The notes under the pieces: model-generated
The model's database searches: none
Told to the model about the DNA's origin: nothing
What the model saw: the letters and a program-made list of their open reading frames with translations, nothing else
Position numbers and translations under genes: made by a program
Shown here: positions 9,166-36,940 of the stretch, piece after piece
Layout: each line of letters begins with the position of its first letter
How positions within the stretch are numbered: position 1 is the first letter of the stretch
Source of the DNA: Candidatus Thorarchaeota archaeon
Lineage (GTDB): Archaea > Asgardarchaeota > Thorarchaeia > Thorarchaeales > Thorarchaeaceae
DNA: 64,000 bases
Assembly: GCA_019057475.1 (NCBI GenBank)
Contig: DXJO01000020.1
Coordinates: 64,001-128,000 of the forward strand
Reading direction: 5' to 3'

Positions 9166-9204
9166 GCAACGCTTTTATTCAGCTACCGCTTGGCACGCTT
9201 CGCA

Positions 9205-9271
9205 GGGGCGGTAGTCTAGCCCGGCTATGATGTCTCGCTTACACCGAGAAGATCGCTGGTTCAAATCCGGC
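9205..9271 (+). pseudogene. Truncated tRNA-Val(TAC) copy lacking the 3' acceptor strand
   Basis: 9212-9271 is identical to 9341-9400. The 5' acceptor GGGGCGG has no CCGCCCC partner after the T-arm. Confidence 0.8.
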
Positions 9272-9333
9272 ATTATGAGTATGCGAAATCTCACACAACG
9301 CTTTTAATCGGTCGTCAAACAAATTGTCGTCTA

Positions 9334-9411
9334 GGGCCGCTAGTCTAGCCCGGCTATGATGTCTCGCTTACACCGAGAAGATCGCTGGTTCAAATCCGGC
9401 GCGGCCCACCA
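9334..9411 (+). tRNA. tRNA-Val(TAC)
   Basis: Acceptor GGGCCGC/GCGGCCC, anticodon arm TCTCG-CTTACAC-CGAGA, encoded ACCA. Confidence 0.97.
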
Positions 9412-9601
9412 TCTGATTTCTTCTCTGGATATATGGCAACAACGACTCTTTTCCTTTTCGTCTTCTCCTAACCAGCAGGTCCGCATAATTATCTCTGTTT
9501 TCCTATAACCATATCAAATGTTCATCTAATAAATATACGAGTCTTACATAACTTCTAGATGCATTCCAGCTAAATTAGACATATATTTGAAATATTAGCT
9601 T

Positions 9602-9614
9602 AATAACTTTATAA
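9602..9614 (+). promoter_or_regulatory. BRE/TATA-like promoter for a putative small RNA or leader starting ~9637
   Basis: AATAACTTTATAA; the same AACTTTATA core occurs at 9698-9706. Confidence 0.5.
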
Positions 9615-9636
9615 CTCAATGTAGGGATTACTGTAC

Positions 9637-9700
9637 GAGTTCATAACCAATTCTGATGACGGAAGTAGGAGTGAGCTCAACTGACCGAACAGGTCAGAAC
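9637..9700 (+). ncRNA. Putative small RNA or leader complementary to the tnpB 3' RNA
   Basis: 9669-9681 is the exact reverse complement of 11498-11510, and 9641-9648 of 11588-11595. Ends in hairpin CTGACC-GAACA-GGTCAG. Confidence 0.4.
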
Positions 9701-9708
9701 TTTATATC
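9696..9708 (+). promoter_or_regulatory. TATA-like promoter for a (near-)leaderless tnpB mRNA
   Basis: AGAACTTTATATC about 25 nt upstream of ATG 9726. Confidence 0.55.
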
Positions 9709-9719
9709 TCGAAGGCGAC

Positions 9720-11405
9720 GTGACGATGGTTCATTCCAAGGGTGTGACAATCGCAGTTAAGGTTCCCATTAAGTGGGAATCAATGACCAAGAGAACTAAG
9801 CAGAGGCTTAGACAAATCGTCGGGCGTGACACCCGAGTCATTCGTGCCTTTCTTGGAGTAATTGAACAGCACGAAAATGAATTGTTGATGGGTCGCAGAT
9901 TGGAACGGATTAACGAAAGCAAACTGGATACACTCACGATAACTGCTGTCAAGGTCAAGCCGGGCTATAGTCAACGACTAAGTGTGCCTCATGACTTCAA
10001 GAAGCGCTTTCCAAGGATATCACACAATGAAATCCAGGAATGCAGACAGACCGCGGTGGCGCTTTATGAGAGCTACCTCGGGTTGAGGAGCAAGAGAGGA
10101 CGAAAGGCTTCAAAACCGTGCGCGGTCAACTCGACGAGGAGAATTCCACGCTGGGCTTTCTCTCAGAGATTCAAACTCTTTGAGAAGACAAATGCAACCT
10201 CTCGCTGGTGGCTCAATCTGCGGGATTCCTTTGACTCAATTCCTGAGGGCCGAAGAATTCATGATCGATTGACCGTTCCCCTGAGAATCTCGCCCTTTCA
10301 TCTGAACCAGTTCAAAAGGGGTGAAGTCAAGGCTCTACAGATATTCACTGATGACTCCAAAAAGTGGTGGGTGACCTTTGCTATACGTGTAGATACACCT
10401 GAACATCCTGACGAGTTTCTCCCACGTGCTGTTCTCGGCATCGATTTAGGAATTAAGAAGGCTGCATGTACTACGCTGGTAACTCCCACAAAGGTCAGAG
10501 AAACCCGCTACTTCAAGCAGAAGGATAAACAGGGTGTACTGCAAAAACTTGACCAGAGAATTTCTGACCTTCAGAGCAAGGCAGACACCCGATTCAATAG
10601 AGGTCAGAGCGCCGACATGGTGTTGGTGAAGACACGCGCACTCAAGCATAAACGAGAGAATGTTTCCAGAGAGTACGACCGCATACTCGTGAATCAGCTC
10701 ATGGAATACATCATTGGGCTGTCCAAGAAATACACTCTCTACATAGCCCTAGGTAGATTGAAGGGAATTCGTGGTGGTGCACGTCGAGGCAACTACAAGG
10801 GTCGCAAGTTCCGTGGAATGATTCACAGATGGACCTTTGCTAGAACCACCAACAGCCTCAAGCATCAGCTAGCACAGCTTGGTTGGCAGGTCGAGGGTAA
10901 GAATGCACATTTCAGGATTATTCCAGAGAACTGGACATCCATTATGTGTTGGAAGTGTGGTCGAAAGGGCAACCGTCCAAAGCAGAACCTGTTTGTGTGT
11001 TCGACCTGCGGCAACAAGTGCAATGCTGACAAGAATGGCTCCATTAACATCGCTGGACGACTAATTACGATCACAGAGTCACTTCATTCTGTGAGAGGAC
11101 TAGGTTTCTGGACATGTGCAATTGAAAGAGCACAAAGTTCGGGGCCGAAAGCCCGAAGGAAGACATGTTCTTCTCGAGGGAAGTCCTTACCCCCCAAAAG
11201 AGACAATGCATCTGGTCCAGGGGGGTCCGCGGCTGTTCACCAAGTTCAATCGGACCTTCTCAGCTTCGGCGACGAAACTGGGATGGGTGATAATGACCCC
11301 GCCGTGGAAAACACTGTGGTAAGACTCTCTGCTGCTGGAAGTGATGCTCCGGCAATAGGACAGGAGAAAGAAGCCAGGTCTGTGGGAGGGATTTCATTCC
11401 GATGA
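9720..11405 (+). CDS. tnpB: TnpB/Cas12f-family RNA-guided nuclease with a rearranged RuvC-II site; no transposase nearby (start 9720 GTG or 9726 ATG)
   Basis: RuvC-I LGIDLG (D242), IALG345RL at the canonical E position, PE403NWTS, Zn finger CWKC...CSTC, RuvC-III NAD437KNGSINI. Confidence 0.9.
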   Translation: MTMVHSKGVTIAVKVPIKWESMTKRTKQRLRQIVGRDTRVIRAFLGVIEQHENELLMGRRLERINESKLDTLTITAVKVKPGYSQRLSVPHDFKKRFPRISHNEIQECRQTAVALYESYLGLRSKRGRKASKPCAVNSTRRIPRWAFSQRFKLFEKTNATSRWWLNLRDSFDSIPEGRRIHDRLTVPLRISPFHLNQFKRGEVKALQIFTDDSKKWWVTFAIRVDTPEHPDEFLPRAVLGIDLGIKKAACTTLVTPTKVRETRYFKQKDKQGVLQKLDQRISDLQSKADTRFNRGQSADMVLVKTRALKHKRENVSREYDRILVNQLMEYIIGLSKKYTLYIALGRLKGIRGGARRGNYKGRKFRGMIHRWTFARTTNSLKHQLAQLGWQVEGKNAHFRIIPENWTSIMCWKCGRKGNRPKQNLFVCSTCGNKCNADKNGSINIAGRLITITESLHSVRGLGFWTCAIERAQSSGPKARRKTCSSRGKSLPPKRDNASGPGGSAAVHQVQSDLLSFGDETGMGDNDPAVENTVVRLSAAGSDAPAIGQEKEARSVGGISFR

Positions 11406-11586
11406 AGGCAGACGAAGCTCCGACTAGGCCTTGGGTAGCGCCAAGGCTTGATGGCGACATCGAGTCGGGGAAGGGTGGAACACAGGAGTTTCCGAGGGTT
11501 GAGCTCACTCAACCTATGGGAACGGGTCAGCCGGCCCGCCCTATCATTTTCAGTCACTGCGATATGGGCGGCAGGTTTAGCTGATT
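11376..11586 (+). ncRNA. Putative omega/reRNA-like structured RNA at the tnpB 3' end (may extend 5' into the ORF)
   Basis: Nested stems CTCCGACT/AGTCGGGG, GCCTTGG/CCAAGGC, GATG-GCGA-CATC and TCAGC/GCTGA enclosing CCGCCC/GGGCGG; homologue at 35206-35407. Confidence 0.75.
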
Positions 11587-11787
11587 GGGTTATGAGTTGA
11601 TTGGAACCACCAAATTAGACCGATTCGTGAAGACATTCGCGGACTCAAGATACTTTGGTTGTCGAGAAGAGCATAATCTGTTTCCTTGGAGATAACAGTG
11701 CATCTGTCATTAATCACCAAAGCATTGAAGAGCCAATTCGCTAGCCCAAAGACTTGCGGTGAGTTCCTGCGGGTTTGACCATAGAAT

Positions 11788-32942: not shown

Positions 32943-35111
32943 TCAAAGAGATAGAATCTGACGCTCAATTGCTTCTCTAATCGAGTCAAGGGCTTCCTTC
33001 ATGCTCACACTTCTTCCTTCAGCATCGACGTTTGGATAATGCTTCGAATACTCTTCTAGGCATTTGCCGCAGGCCATCACAAAGATGTCGAGAGAATTGA
33101 ACATTTCTCCCTGTTCCTTGGCATTCTCAATCAGTTTCCATGACGCCTTCAAGATCTCTGCCTTGATTGATTTCCATGAACGCTCTGGGGGGTTTCGTCC
33201 TCTCTTTCGACAAACAAGGACCATATCCATCGTGATGTTCTTCATCTGATGGAGGTGCGTTGAAGCTCTCATCTCGCTTCTGACAGGATACGACGCGGAA
33301 ATGTAGAAACCAGAATTCAAGACGGCTTTTAAAACAAGAGCCCAAGCATCGCTTCTCTTGTGATGAAAAGTAAATACAAAAATGCCCTCGTCCTTTAGAA
33401 CCCGACAAGCTTCAGAAAACACCCGCGTAAGTCCTTCTACGAACTCCTCCTTTCCTTTCTTTTGAGCGCGATTCTCAATCACTTCTGCTTGCCACGGAAC
33501 GGTTTCCCCCTTGAAGTAATCATAGCTTGTTTTTAGAGCAATCCTGAGCCAGACGTAGAAGAAGTTCGAGAGCTCAGAGTACATCACGTTGCCTGCATAA
33601 GGTGGGTCGGTTATCACCGCATCCACGCTCTTACGGGGGATGTCTATAAATTCCGATGACCCACACTGAAGAAGCACACTGCCCGGCTCGTGGATGACAT
33701 CAAATGCCGTAGCGAGTTTTCCGATGATTGGTGTTTCAAACTGCACCTTTCTACTACCATCTTTCTCGATAACCCTTTCAAACGGCTGTCTACAGTATGC
33801 CTTTCCTTCCATTACAAGATTGACAAATGCAGTAAACGCACCCCTCCCCTTTGACGTATCGTAGCAATTTGCTTCGACCGGAGCCATTGAAGGCGAGTAT
33901 GAATGAGTCCTGAAGATGTCTGTTATGAATCCTCTAGTACTGTTGTATTTCGCGAACATGTTGTTATACTTCAGGCAATTCGAGAATGCAAGAAGGAGAA
34001 ACTCCTTGAGGTTCCAGTCCTCGACCCTCAAAATCCAATTAAGGATCTTTCCTAGATTCAGCAGCTGTCTCTCATTGAACAAATCCTTGAATCGGACGTA
34101 TCCATGGTTCAATGCTCTCTTTGTTTCAACTCCAAGAGGAATCGGAGTATCTGGGATTGGCAGCTGGTCCTTCAGCTTATCGAATTCCTGTTTAGCTGAT
34201 GCAAGAAGCTGAAGGTCCGCTGAGTCAGCAGTCTTGTATCCTCGGCCATTCATTAGCCTTGGATTATTAGTCAACTCGCATTGTGGACAATGGAATTCAA
34301 CAGCATACATCCGTTCATGGAGCGGACCATTCCTCCCAGTTGCTGTCACTATCTTGCCGCCCCTACAGCCATTATTGGGGCATTCGTATTTCCGTCTTCT
34401 TGCAGACGAGGTTGCTTTCGGAATGAATTCTGCTCCACATTTCGTGCATTTTGTCTTGATTTCCGCGTTTTTCGTCACAAAAACATCCCAACATTGTGGG
34501 CACACAATCACATCTCCTGTTTCAACTGGAGACCGGGCCAAGAAGTAATTCCGCATCAAAGGGATAGTGTGACCGCACTCAGTACACTCCAGCTCTTTGC
34601 AGTAGAAGTAGTATATCGCCTGTGCGGCGCTTCCGCAATCTGGGCACGTGGTCTTGTAGTACCTGCGCAGTTCGGTGCCAAGATCTCTCTCTAGCAAAGT
34701 AAGAGCGCGCTCGAGTTCCTCAGGATTGATGTCCTCAATCTGTTTCTTTACCACAAACCATGCGACTGGATTGAGGTCTCCAGCAACAACGCTGCAGCCA
34801 AATCGTAGAGCCTCCACGACGGTGGTTCCACCACCCATCATAGGATCAAGAATCACCTTGCTCGGGAGCTTGACATCCTGAGAGTAGAATTCCCAGAGCG
34901 AGTGAGGATCTAGATTCCAACCTTCTATCTGTTCATCTGCGAGGGTGTAGAGTATAATTGCACGAAAGACTGACCCAAGTCGCCTTGCCCACCACTTATG
35001 CATTGTATAAACGGGTCTGTAATGTCGTCTACCAAAGCCAGTGGACTCCTTCTCAGCAATCCTGTTTATCTCGGTTACTGGAAACGTGACCTCAATGGGT
35101 TTCTTCGGCAG
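32943..35111 (-). CDS. DUF1156-family adenine DNA methyltransferase with Zn ribbons (probable CTG start)
   Basis: HKWWARR, DPMMGGGT, several CxxC and TDPPY. The frame extends upstream (PIEVTFP..IN.IAEKE) to CTG 35111 behind AGGAGG. Confidence 0.88.
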   Translation of the reverse strand: MPKKPIEVTFPVTEINRIAEKESTGFGRRHYRPVYTMHKWWARRLGSVFRAIILYTLADEQIEGWNLDPHSLWEFYSQDVKLPSKVILDPMMGGGTTVVEALRFGCSVVAGDLNPVAWFVVKKQIEDINPEELERALTLLERDLGTELRRYYKTTCPDCGSAAQAIYYFYCKELECTECGHTIPLMRNYFLARSPVETGDVIVCPQCWDVFVTKNAEIKTKCTKCGAEFIPKATSSARRRKYECPNNGCRGGKIVTATGRNGPLHERMYAVEFHCPQCELTNNPRLMNGRGYKTADSADLQLLASAKQEFDKLKDQLPIPDTPIPLGVETKRALNHGYVRFKDLFNERQLLNLGKILNWILRVEDWNLKEFLLLAFSNCLKYNNMFAKYNSTRGFITDIFRTHSYSPSMAPVEANCYDTSKGRGAFTAFVNLVMEGKAYCRQPFERVIEKDGSRKVQFETPIIGKLATAFDVIHEPGSVLLQCGSSEFIDIPRKSVDAVITDPPYAGNVMYSELSNFFYVWLRIALKTSYDYFKGETVPWQAEVIENRAQKKGKEEFVEGLTRVFSEACRVLKDEGIFVFTFHHKRSDAWALVLKAVLNSGFYISASYPVRSEMRASTHLHQMKNITMDMVLVCRKRGRNPPERSWKSIKAEILKASWKLIENAKEQGEMFNSLDIFVMACGKCLEEYSKHYPNVDAEGRSVSMKEALDSIREAIERQILSL

Positions 35112-35205
35112 GCTAGAGCCTCCTGTACATTAGGGGTGTGTGAGTAAGAAGCAGTCAGCCCTTTCAATATTCCGAGGTTGATTTGATTATCAGCAAACCC
35201 TTGTT

Positions 35206-35407
35206 AGGCCTGCTGAGTAATCCTTAGGCACTTGATGGCAGACAATACCTTAGCTGAGCTTCAGGTTACACTGGAGTATGATGGAAACGTCCGGCTGAGG
35301 GAGGGTGGAACACAGAAGCTTCTTGCAGTTGGGCTCACTCATCTCAGGAAACAGGTCAGGCCGGTTCGAATCCCCCTTGCTGAAGGGGCGGACCGAAACA
35401 AGCTTGA
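35206..35407 (+). ncRNA. Orphan copy of the tnpB-associated structured RNA
   Basis: 35237-35341 aligns without gaps to 11407-11511 (66/105 identical by hand), with compensatory stem changes. Confidence 0.8.
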
Positions 35408-35418
35408 AGAAGGGAGAA

Positions 35419-35493
35419 TGGTCCGGATGGCCGGATTTTTCGGCGCACTATTCGCCTATAGCAGCGCAGAACTGGCAACCCATGGATCTACAG
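35419..35493 (-). pseudogene. tRNA-Tyr 3' half fragment (att-like) with a 30-nt T-loop BHB intron (35439-35468)
   Basis: CTGTAGA TCCAT GGGTT GCCAG TTC[30 nt]AAAT CCGGC CATCCGG ACCA; matches the spliced tRNA-Tyr from position 32 onward. Confidence 0.85.
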
Positions 35494-35580
35494 CCTTTTA
35501 GAGGTCTAGAACATTGAGATGGCACATCAAATCTACTGACTGTTGGATATTAAAGAAAGATATCATACTATAAGTGGGAG

Positions 35581-36162
35581 TTGATAGTGAAACGCCTGTC
35601 ACGGTTTCAGTGGCTTCTTGTTGTAGGTTTGATATTGTTTCTCAGCGGGAATTTTCTACCAATACGATTTCCACTATGGAGCAGTCAGTATTCATTTGAA
35701 ATCGGTCCTTGGGATTCCAGTTCGGAGAGTGTCGATATTCCATTCAGTATATTCTATGGTGAATCTGTGAGAGTGATAGTTGAATTTGACAGCTCTGCGA
35801 CTCCTGATGATTGTTGGGTACGGGCGTTGGTGTACTATCAATATCCCACAAAAGTAATCTCTGATACGGCAATCCGTCTTGAAGGACAATGTGAAGTAAG
35901 CTTCACATTTGGCTGGGAAAATGTGCGCCTCATACCTGTCTTTGTCACTGGATTCACGGTTAGTCTATTCTATACTGGTACAGACAGTGTTTCGGTAGAT
36001 GTTGTTGTCACGAGTTTGGCAAACTTGGTCACTCTCACTGGCTTTGGATTCTTGGTCATTCTAGTCCTACCCATCTTGAAACCAGCAGTAATCAGTAGAT
36101 TTGGTAAACAGAGAAAGCAGCAAGATAGAGGAGTGGATAATGGTCGGGACGGCCGGATTTGA
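35581..36162 (+). CDS. Hypothetical protein with N- and C-terminal TM helices
   Basis: 193-aa ORF with two hydrophobic ends; the stop lies within the antisense of the tRNA-Tyr 3' end. Confidence 0.65.
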   Translation: MIVKRLSRFQWLLVVGLILFLSGNFLPIRFPLWSSQYSFEIGPWDSSSESVDIPFSIFYGESVRVIVEFDSSATPDDCWVRALVYYQYPTKVISDTAIRLEGQCEVSFTFGWENVRLIPVFVTGFTVSLFYTGTDSVSVDVVVTSLANLVTLTGFGFLVILVLPILKPAVISRFGKQRKQQDRGVDNGRDGRI

Positions 36163-36248
36163 ACCGGCAACCCATGGATCTCTCCAGACAACAACCGAAG
36201 CTGTTGCCCGCTACAGTCCATTGCTCTGCCAGGTTGAGCTACATCCCG
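36141..36248 (-). tRNA. tRNA-Tyr(GTA) with 31-nt intron (36180-36210)
   Basis: C1-G72 acceptor CGGGATG/CGTCCCG, ATGGA-CTGTAG^A-TCCAT, ACCA. Confidence 0.95.
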
Positions 36249-36403
36249 ATGTTCGGAGCGAGTCCTGCATGGTTCTGAATAAAAGCATTGCTGCATAAGC
36301 TAATCGCTCTTGCTCATTTTCTTTCACAAACGTTGTCTTCAGCATTCAACTCTTGATTTCAATATTCTCCGTGTCTGCAATCTTGAAAGATTTTTGTATA
36401 CTA

Positions 36404-36940
36404 CTAACTCAGGAATTCTGTCACATCATTGACAGATAATCTAGGTCTAGGTTTTGGATTTGCATCTGACCATCCCACAGTTATTGCCGCAAGTAGTTTC
36501 CAAGGTTTCTTGAAATAGTCAACGATACCTTCAGATGTATAAAGGATATCCCCAATCCAACAGGTTCCAAGTCCAAGTGCATGAGCTTTCAATAATAGAT
36601 TTTGAATTGCTGCAGATACACTGTGAATCTCAGTGGACCATCCGAGCTTGTTCGTATTCCAAACCACAATGACCACTGGAGCTTCTTTCATCATTGTGCA
36701 TGAGCCATATGAAGAACCCACATCAAAGGTTAGTTTGTCAAGTTCACTTCTGTACATGTCCGTAAATTTGTCCTTAGATTCACCAGTAAGCACAGTGAAT
36801 CTCCATTGCTGACCATTCTTGGCACTGGGCGCGAATGTTGCCGCTTCGATAATTTCTCTGACTAAATCCTCCTTTACTTCATCTTTCTTGTATGTTCTAA
36901 TACTTCGACGTCCCTTGATAGCCTCATCAATACTCATCAT
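36404..36940 (-). CDS. Nitroreductase family protein
   Basis: RRSIR, APSAKNGQQWRF and QNLLLKAHALGLGTCW. Confidence 0.93.
   Translation of the reverse strand: MMSIDEAIKGRRSIRTYKKDEVKEDLVREIIEAATFAPSAKNGQQWRFTVLTGESKDKFTDMYRSELDKLTFDVGSSYGSCTMMKEAPVVIVVWNTNKLGWSTEIHSVSAAIQNLLLKAHALGLGTCWIGDILYTSEGIVDYFKKPWKLLAAITVGWSDANPKPRPRLSVNDVTEFLS

Follow-up and report, generated by a model that had tools for sequence, protein, structure and literature searches.

The window analysed here comprises 64,000 nt of a Candidatus Thorarchaeota archaeon (GenBank assembly GCA_019057475.1, contig DXJO01000020.1, positions 64,001 to 128,000), and coordinates given without a contig name refer to it; the host genome, a 3.34-Mb assembly that is 96% complete, is designated G000. 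The window harbours a gene-linked TnpB element (copy A) and an orphan piece of related sequence, situated between a DNA methyltransferase gene and a tRNA-Tyr locus and adjoined by no effector gene. The features concerned are:

9600-9719, plus strand: left-end region of copy A; besides two TATA-like boxes it contains the right-end hairpin in inverted form (GAGTGAGCTCAAC) and the terminal GAACAGGTCAG repeated in direct orientation
9720-11405, plus strand: tnpB gene of copy A, 561 aa (Pfam TNB domain, 1.3e-10; alignments to TnpB and Cas12f in PDB; family alignment)
11213-11530, plus strand: guide RNA of copy A as traced, with at least 190 nt in the tnpB tail and the 128-nt module (11403-11530)
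32943-35003, minus strand: DNA methyltransferase gene, the conserved left neighbour used for synteny (Pfam N6_N4_Mtase, 7.5e-11)
35226-35232: left junction of the orphan; 35225 (...TAATCCTT) is the last position shared with congeners, and homology to the module begins within 7 nt
35233-35359, plus strand: orphan 3' domain ('module') of the family TnpB guide RNA together with the element right end (CM R1, nhmmer, identity to copy A)
35360-35375, plus strand: flank in guide position, GCCGGTTCGAATCC, resembling a tRNA T-stem/T-loop (13-nt exact match to a tRNA T-arm)
35419-35500, minus strand: 3' half-copy of tRNA-Tyr with a T-loop insert of roughly 30 nt (direct repeat of 36121-36181; read against the intron-bearing tRNA-Tyr of the congener G001)
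36144-36248, minus strand: intact tRNA-Tyr(GUA) with a 37/38 intron (Rfam tRNA, 56.2 bits; anticodon read from the sequence)

An earlier reading, made without database searches (hereafter the sequence-only reading), had proposed that the orphan is a protein-less second copy of the TnpB RNA and a candidate guide acting in trans. The alignment on which this was based proved exact, in that 35237-35341 and 11407-11511 are identical, without gaps, at 66/105 positions; this value lies 8.9 SD out, the other 105-nt windows on both strands of the 64 kb averaging 26.0 identities (sd 4.5) with a next best of 47. The homologous unit spans 35233-35359 in the orphan (127 bases) and 11403-11530 in copy A (128 nt), and runs from the conserved stop codon TGA to ...GGTCAG. 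The orphan was retrieved by nhmmer (E=5e-30) and matched at full length by CM R1 (model positions 1-135), scoring 104.6-104.7 bits compared with 112.6 bits for copy A, and P1, P2, the GNRA hairpin and the 3' hairpin are all kept. The stem changes between the two copies that had been listed as covariation are real and agree with the family-wide structure: pairing across 20 copies amounts to 90.6% in P1, the GNRA hairpin and the 3' hairpin, compared with 41-48% when partners are slid, and both partners have changed in 14/24 pairs, with 0/500 shuffles attaining as much. No Rfam family matched the orphan RNA, as only tRNAs were reported in the window at gathering score and nothing credible at E<=10 in 35100-35650.

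Closely related copies of the module can be aligned as far as ...GAAATGGGTTAT and are unrelated beyond it; the two copies in the window stop at the equivalent ...GGTCAG, at 11530 and 35359, and across copies the copy-specific flank starts after ...GGTTAT or ...GGTCAG. The long hairpins closed by GCTGA or GCTTGA, with which both copies had been thought to end, are thus located beyond the right end, outside the repeat and in flanks unrelated between copies, given that the boundary is fixed by flank divergence and by a comparison of filled and empty sites. Nor is the orphan the second member of a pair, being one of about 17 copies in the genome.

The open reading frame at 9720-11405, at whose stop codon the module of copy A begins, encodes a Cas12f1-like TNB domain with a weak OrfB_IS605 match and aligns to solved TnpB and Cas12f chains. 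The RuvC-I and RuvC-III aspartates are present, whilst the canonical RuvC-II glutamate is replaced by glycine (IALGRL) in 11/11 aligned family proteins; a conserved glutamate is found in a motif preceding the zinc finger, which reads PENWTS in nine of the 11. The left-end region of copy A is conserved upstream of 12/13 compared family tnpB genes, that of C9 keeping only the first part. Upstream of the family genes the two TATA-like boxes bracket a segment of roughly 70 nt, and the region ends with the inverted hairpin and the direct terminal GAAACAGGTCAG; the bracketed segment could encode a small leader RNA or serve as an end repeat bound by a transposase. Just upstream of the copy A element, a 68-nt repeat (9204-9271 and 9333-9400, 97% identical) was observed, the first unit being a tRNA-Val copy that lacks the acceptor strand at its 3' end and the second a complete tRNA-Val, whose acceptor stem differs.

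The family has been mobile recently, as demonstrated by precise empty sites in three congeners (G003, G004 and G006) for a non-autonomous element of ~665 bp termed C21c (G000 C21:38775-39440, equivalent to L058 1075-1740). Written out, the filled site is ...GTTATGGAA/element...GATTCT/ATGGAAACACC, compared with ...GTTATGGAAACACC for the empty one; this comparison fixes the right end to within 0-6 nt. The 6-nt ATGGAA present on both sides in this one comparison fits either a short duplication or bases shared by end and target. Neither a Y1 TnpA (Y1_Tnp) nor Cas1 was found in the 96%-complete G000, and the large open reading frame beside the C42 copy carries no informative domain. A TAM could not be derived from the target-side bases preceding tRNA-like flanks, which are inconsistent except for a final T.

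The family guide RNA has a length of at least 320 nt, of which 190 nt or more lie within the 3' tail of tnpB. Amongst eight full-length genes, divergence at the three codon positions was 0.26/0.26/0.28 over aa 501-561, compared with 0.32/0.22/0.60 over aa 1-445, and the tail, showing no codon periodicity, is therefore constrained as nucleic acid. A structural alignment of 13 sequences over the tail (190 nt) and module yielded a consensus of 75 pairs, 35 of them with compensatory changes; the helices internal to the tail are 95.5% paired (36-48% when slid), with 25/50 pairs compensatory. Tail and module are joined by three long-range helices, GAGU:ACUC (within TCACTCA), CUGUG:CACAG (within GGAACACAG) and GCC:GGU, which are paired in 156/156 cells compared with 20-50% when slid, and in L009 carry two compensating changes. 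CACAG, ACUC and GGU are the invariant or most conserved motifs of the module. Furthermore, the module directly follows the stop codon in 10/10 tnpB loci of other Thorarchaeota MAGs, and non-autonomous elements keep exactly the tail and module.

Measured against this architecture, the orphan is only the 3' third of the family guide RNA, with the front two-thirds gone. Lacking the tail, its scaffold is incomplete, the partners of CACAG, ACUC and GGU all being missing. The proposal of a self-sufficient guide in trans was not supported by this comparison, because 190 nt or more of the family RNA lie within the tnpB tail, a 5' part that the orphan lacks altogether. Other elements of the sequence-only reading were borne out, namely that the orphan is a copy of the RNA and right-end module that follows tnpB, that no nuclease gene adjoins it and that its helices are intact.

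Searches of G000 with nhmmer and CM R1 returned 19 hits, representing about 17 loci once duplicates at contig ends were merged. A full tnpB precedes the module at four of these: C54a (copy A), C42, C18 and C9. Five others are non-autonomous elements of about 665 bp, each composed of a left end of roughly 200 nt, the last ~330 nt of tnpB and the module; one further locus has a larger gene fragment and another a 50-aa trace. The remaining modules, including the orphan, have no protein trace and start at model positions 1-70. Fragments consisting of the guide-RNA tail with neither gene nor module were also observed in G000 (C47:7764-7837 and C18:34657-34835), the mirror image of the orphan. Amongst 86 genomes of the taxonomic family, the module is present in 62, and at least about 540 modules were counted against about 204 hits to the TnpB N-terminus (first 440 residues). 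In G073, G063, G042 and G067 modules were found (1-10 each) with no family tnpB hit at E<=1e-30, for instance 10 vs 0 in G073 and 4 vs 0 in G063, though these MAGs are 87-93% complete and the gene's absence from them is not proven. The orphan is most likely a member of this decay series, which outnumbers the genes in these genomes.

The left junction of the orphan was placed by comparison with G001, G005 and G006. In agreement with the claim that no tnpB remnant is visible upstream, three-frame profile searching of the preceding 1.5 kb gave only matches with E>1, and a nucleotide profile of the tnpB tail found no match in 34000-36500 even at E<=100, whilst locating 12 places elsewhere in the genome. 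The family left-end sequence was not found upstream of the orphan, and direct reading of 35150-35232 revealed no TATA-like box such as those found ahead of family tnpB genes. These absences bear upon the possibility that the orphan is a non-autonomous mobile element, a MITE or PATE carrying only the RNA, of which five same-family examples exist in G000, one with the precise empty sites in three congeners described above. Those elements, however, possess the left end of roughly 200 nt and the tail, and the left edge of the orphan is a rearrangement junction. A MITE or PATE identity was ruled out for the orphan because it has neither left end nor tail, and next to no credence can be given to it.

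It is also conceivable that the missing 5' part is supplied in trans, the orphan serving as a crRNA-like piece that pairs with a tail-encoded 5' half derived from tnpB mRNAs or from non-autonomous elements. The long-range helices are short, invariant and common to all sublineages, so that any tail could in principle pair with any module, and tail-only fragments do exist. However, the helices to be formed in trans (CUGUG:CACAG, GAGU:ACUC and GCC:GGU) amount to only 12 bp in total, pieces with only a tail or only a module are equally expected from random decay, and the unit has been lost in congeners. Such a split guide has a very slight chance of being correct.

The history of the locus can be followed through relatives, with the methyltransferase gene (92-93% identical in congeners, 67-68% in other genera) as a conserved neighbour. 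In the congeners G001, G005 and G006, sequence 92-93% identical to that of G000 continues up to 35225 and then passes straight into tRNA-Tyr, the module being absent; relative to these genomes the segment 35419-36248 is inverted. In G004, the sequence from 35203 to the end of the contig consists of half a family left end (its 3' half) and, after it, the decayed beginning of a tnpB, at a junction 22 nt nearer the methyltransferase gene than that of the orphan and thus at almost the same place. G008, which belongs to another genus, encodes the methyltransferase gene followed by a module with all helices, the flank GCCGGTTCAAACCC and an opposite-strand tRNA-Tyr, with no tnpB trace at this orthologous locus. 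G084, of the same genus as G008, encodes tnpB residues 72-559 before its contig ends, directly preceding a module of the orphan's sublineage, and a related flank (...GGTTGCCGGTTC) and tRNA-Tyr follow; its synteny with G008 beyond the tRNA is weak. The orphan was not found in other genomes of the order that were searched.

The orphans of G000 and G008 both start at ACTTGA, which favours one old deletion, and are 80% identical over the 3' 82 nt, inclusive of the first 14 flank bases, with the spacer beyond the flank unalignable. Selection on the orphan may account for this identity, as may a lengthy phase during which tnpB was still attached. The nearest sampled module to the orphan is the gene-linked one of G084 (67%), and modules within G000 are 53-61% identical to it; the G084 TnpB is 64% identical to that of C42, 59% to that of copy A, 43% to C18a and 40% to C9. 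The compensatory changes between orphan and copy A separate two gene-linked sublineages, and are therefore no demonstration of selection on the orphan itself. The simplest reading of these comparisons would be an old insertion beside tRNA-Tyr that has been variously left intact, beheaded or removed. The sequence-only reading had itself named the decayed end of a deleted element as the outcome that would tell against a guide, and this is where the relatives point, through the truncated left end of G004, the intact tnpB of G084 and the absence from G001, G005 and G006.

A role other than guiding was considered for the same locus, either as a right-end 'landing pad' or recombination site for new copies, or as a transcript antisense into the 3' half of tRNA-Tyr. 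The locus is a rearrangement hot spot, as evident from the inversion, the truncated left end in G004 and the tnpB in G084, and the module and a tRNA-Tyr fragment converge here as they do in G008, G007 and C21d. An association with tRNA fragments is, however, also expected if elements accumulate in the scars of integrated elements near tRNA genes, and we regard such a role as highly improbable.

The sequence-only reading had correctly placed the antisense of a tRNA-Tyr 3' end downstream of the orphan; this is a 3' half-copy that begins about 60 nt past the right end and not 11 nt, a distance that had been counted from an assumed RNA end. The half-copy was recognised only through comparison with relatives, as its T-loop insert splits it and causes both ARAGORN and Rfam to miss it. 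It lies about 650 nt from the intact tRNA-Tyr(GUA), which ARAGORN miscalls as tRNA-Asn, is on the same strand, and reads across the 37/38 position without an intron. In G001 the full tRNA-Tyr itself has a T-loop insert. A second right-end-like unit was sought after the orphan and rejected, the apparent match to GAATGGTCCGG being the antisense CCA end of the tRNA-Tyr half.

The flank in guide position resembles a tRNA for about 14 nt only, and the orthologous orphan in G008 has the same flank. Searches for a second genomic target of this flank retrieved only tRNA T-arms with 1-2 mismatches, with the same outcome for the copy A flank; the intact tRNA-Tyr T-arm matches the orphan flank at 13/16 bases, with a mismatch at guide position 9. 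No exact match to the 20-mers that follow either right end was found in viral contigs, so that the target search proposed in the sequence-only reading produced no second target in genome or viral contigs. Related flanks were observed in another genus after a gene-linked copy (G074) and an orphan copy (G065b). The T-arm-like flank of the orphan might belong to the element.

These results are pertinent to a self-sufficient stand-alone guide, according to which the 127-nt module and its flank would be transcribed, loaded by a TnpB encoded elsewhere and directed to T-arm-like DNA. In its favour are the intact helices and high CM score, the orthologous orphan of G008 with its conserved flank, the four TnpB genes of G000 and the published precedent of stand-alone omegaRNAs acting in trans (PMC10691335). 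Against this, the tail partners of the invariant motifs, which are present in every gene-linked copy, are missing; there is no TATA-like box in 35150-35232; the unit was lost in three congeners; the genome's best matches to the flank are tRNA T-arms mismatched in the seed; and G000 appears to encode no closely cognate protein, its TnpBs being 40-64% identical to that of G084. We consider the stand-alone guide very unlikely, and any guide function for the orphan, whether self-sufficient or split, unlikely.

A wider association of the family with tRNA genes was nonetheless apparent. Tested at E<=1e-3, a tRNA-like segment occurs within 45 nt of the right end in 11/92 modules compared with 6/3000 random 45-mers, the fold enrichment being rough because some of the 92 loci are orthologous. 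Flanks with pieces of tRNA, in sense or antisense, include those of L112, L115, L121, L123, L125, L066, L006, L010 and L011 as well as 35360-35375 of the window. In two copies the right end directly adjoins position 38 of an antisense tRNA-Tyr, which is where the intron sits; others enter a tRNA at the anticodon loop or variable loop and follow it into its 3' part, and in several flanks the similarity lasts for only 14-17 nt. Within G000, only 3 of about 19 copies lie <=300 nt from a tRNA. The suggestion of a link between the RNAs in the window and tRNA integration sites is thus supported as far as the family-level enrichment and the tRNA-Tyr fragment beside the orphan are concerned, but not as a surveillance function of the orphan copy; tRNA targeting is a family-level lead, and no property demonstrated for this copy. 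If the guides of the family really are aimed at tRNA genes, this would bear on the relation of TnpB elements to archaeal tRNA introns and integration sites. There is only a slight chance that the orphan represents one half, the crRNA-like one, of a TnpB guide split in nature, with the rebuilt RNA aimed at tRNA genes by its T-arm-like guide; if true, it would constitute a living intermediate between the one-piece omegaRNA and the tracrRNA:crRNA pair.

Other sequence beyond the right ends of family modules was also recorded. After that of copy A, 11531-11593 consists of 20 nt (CCGGCCCGCC...) resembling a tRNA acceptor 3' strand with CC, followed by a 43-nt stretch with GTCACTGCG and ...TGGGTTAT that is like a degenerate second right-end unit and is kept at the orthologous loci of two relatives; this 43-nt stretch may be a second guide unit. 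In G065, contig C174 (L049 2042-2546) encodes, within about 500 nt, a tnpB, its module, an opposite-strand tRNA and a gene-less second module with a T-arm-like flank (GTCGCAAGTTCGAATC).

From the homology, structure, truncation, locus history and abundance of the orphan, we infer a loss of function, and the reading that it is an inert remnant of a kind common in these Asgard archaea, and no free-standing guide, is assigned a probability of roughly 0.7. An Asgard (Thorarchaeota) TnpB element would have inserted beside the tRNA-Tyr locus long ago, and a deletion or rearrangement at 35225/35226 would then have removed the left end, the nuclease gene and the 5' portion (at least 190 nt) of the guide RNA. 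If intact elements behave as characterised TnpB systems do, their RNA would be read through from tnpB, its tail pairing with CACAG, ACUC and GGU, and the flank after ...GGTCAG would supply the guide. Possessing only local helices and a 14-nt tRNA-like flank, with no recognisable promoter or left end, the orphan is most likely neither mobile nor a competent guide. The intact local helices, with a CM score equal to those of gene-linked copies, count against the inert-remnant reading, and the retention of helices and flank by the G008 orphan beside a gene of only 67-68% identity could indicate selection on the orphan. The ACTTGA start common to both orphans, the four TnpB genes of the genome and the precedent of trans-acting omegaRNAs likewise count against it.

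The guide RNA described here is organised like the ISDra2 omegaRNA, in that it shares sequence with the 3' end of tnpB, stops at the element's right end and has its guide in the flank. In the ISDra2 omegaRNA, pairing of a long-range or pseudoknot type ties a 5' segment to the guide-proximal part. The 5' part of that RNA is also partly dispensable, which counts against the reading of the orphan as an inert remnant. Unlike ISDra2, however, with which there is no sequence similarity, the host protein here is of 561 aa with a relocated RuvC-II glutamate, and no Y1 TnpA is found in G000.

The covariation-supported architecture, of at least 320 nt with ~190 nt over the last tnpB codons, is a reusable result for this Asgard TnpB family, as is the observation that many copies have, in the guide position, a short stretch of tRNA gene that in some cases starts at an intron position. 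A GTTCACTCA motif following tnpB has been described for Asgard-linked TnpB branches (Altae-Tran 2023, PMC10691335), which resemble the present family in host group and in the (G)TTCACTCA motif, which is here located in the 3' hairpin of the module. In the loci described, the motif is preceded by a hypervariable region that may be spacer-like, and the loci are linked to Asgard Cas1 (PMC10691335), whereas here the sequence preceding the motif is conserved among copies, a variable flank follows it at a distance of about 25 nt and no Cas1 was found in the genome. The apparent relocation of the RuvC-II glutamate would fit the 'rearranged' branches of PMC10691335, a likeness that does not assign the family to any named branch.

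Protein-less pieces of TnpB guide RNA are already known, and the orphan itself is an ordinary decay product. Stand-alone omegaRNAs working in trans have been described (PMC10691335, citing Altae-Tran 2021), and protein-less PATE-like elements encoding omegaRNAs have been reported (Meers 2023, PMC10055086). The orphan is similar to these in that its scaffold is homologous to that of a TnpB element, no nuclease gene is adjacent, related TnpBs are encoded elsewhere and gene-less copies outnumber genes. The stand-alone RNAs described there, however, are complete and usually accompanied by both transposon ends, whereas the orphan is a 3' domain at a rearrangement junction, which carries the practical warning that a well-folded 'orphan omegaRNA' may be merely a 3' domain. 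A further parallel is with solitary ends and 5'-truncated IS remnants, which likewise consist of one end, vary in presence among close relatives and occur as graded truncations within a genome; unlike these, the orphan is a well-folded RNA structural domain that is shared with another genus.
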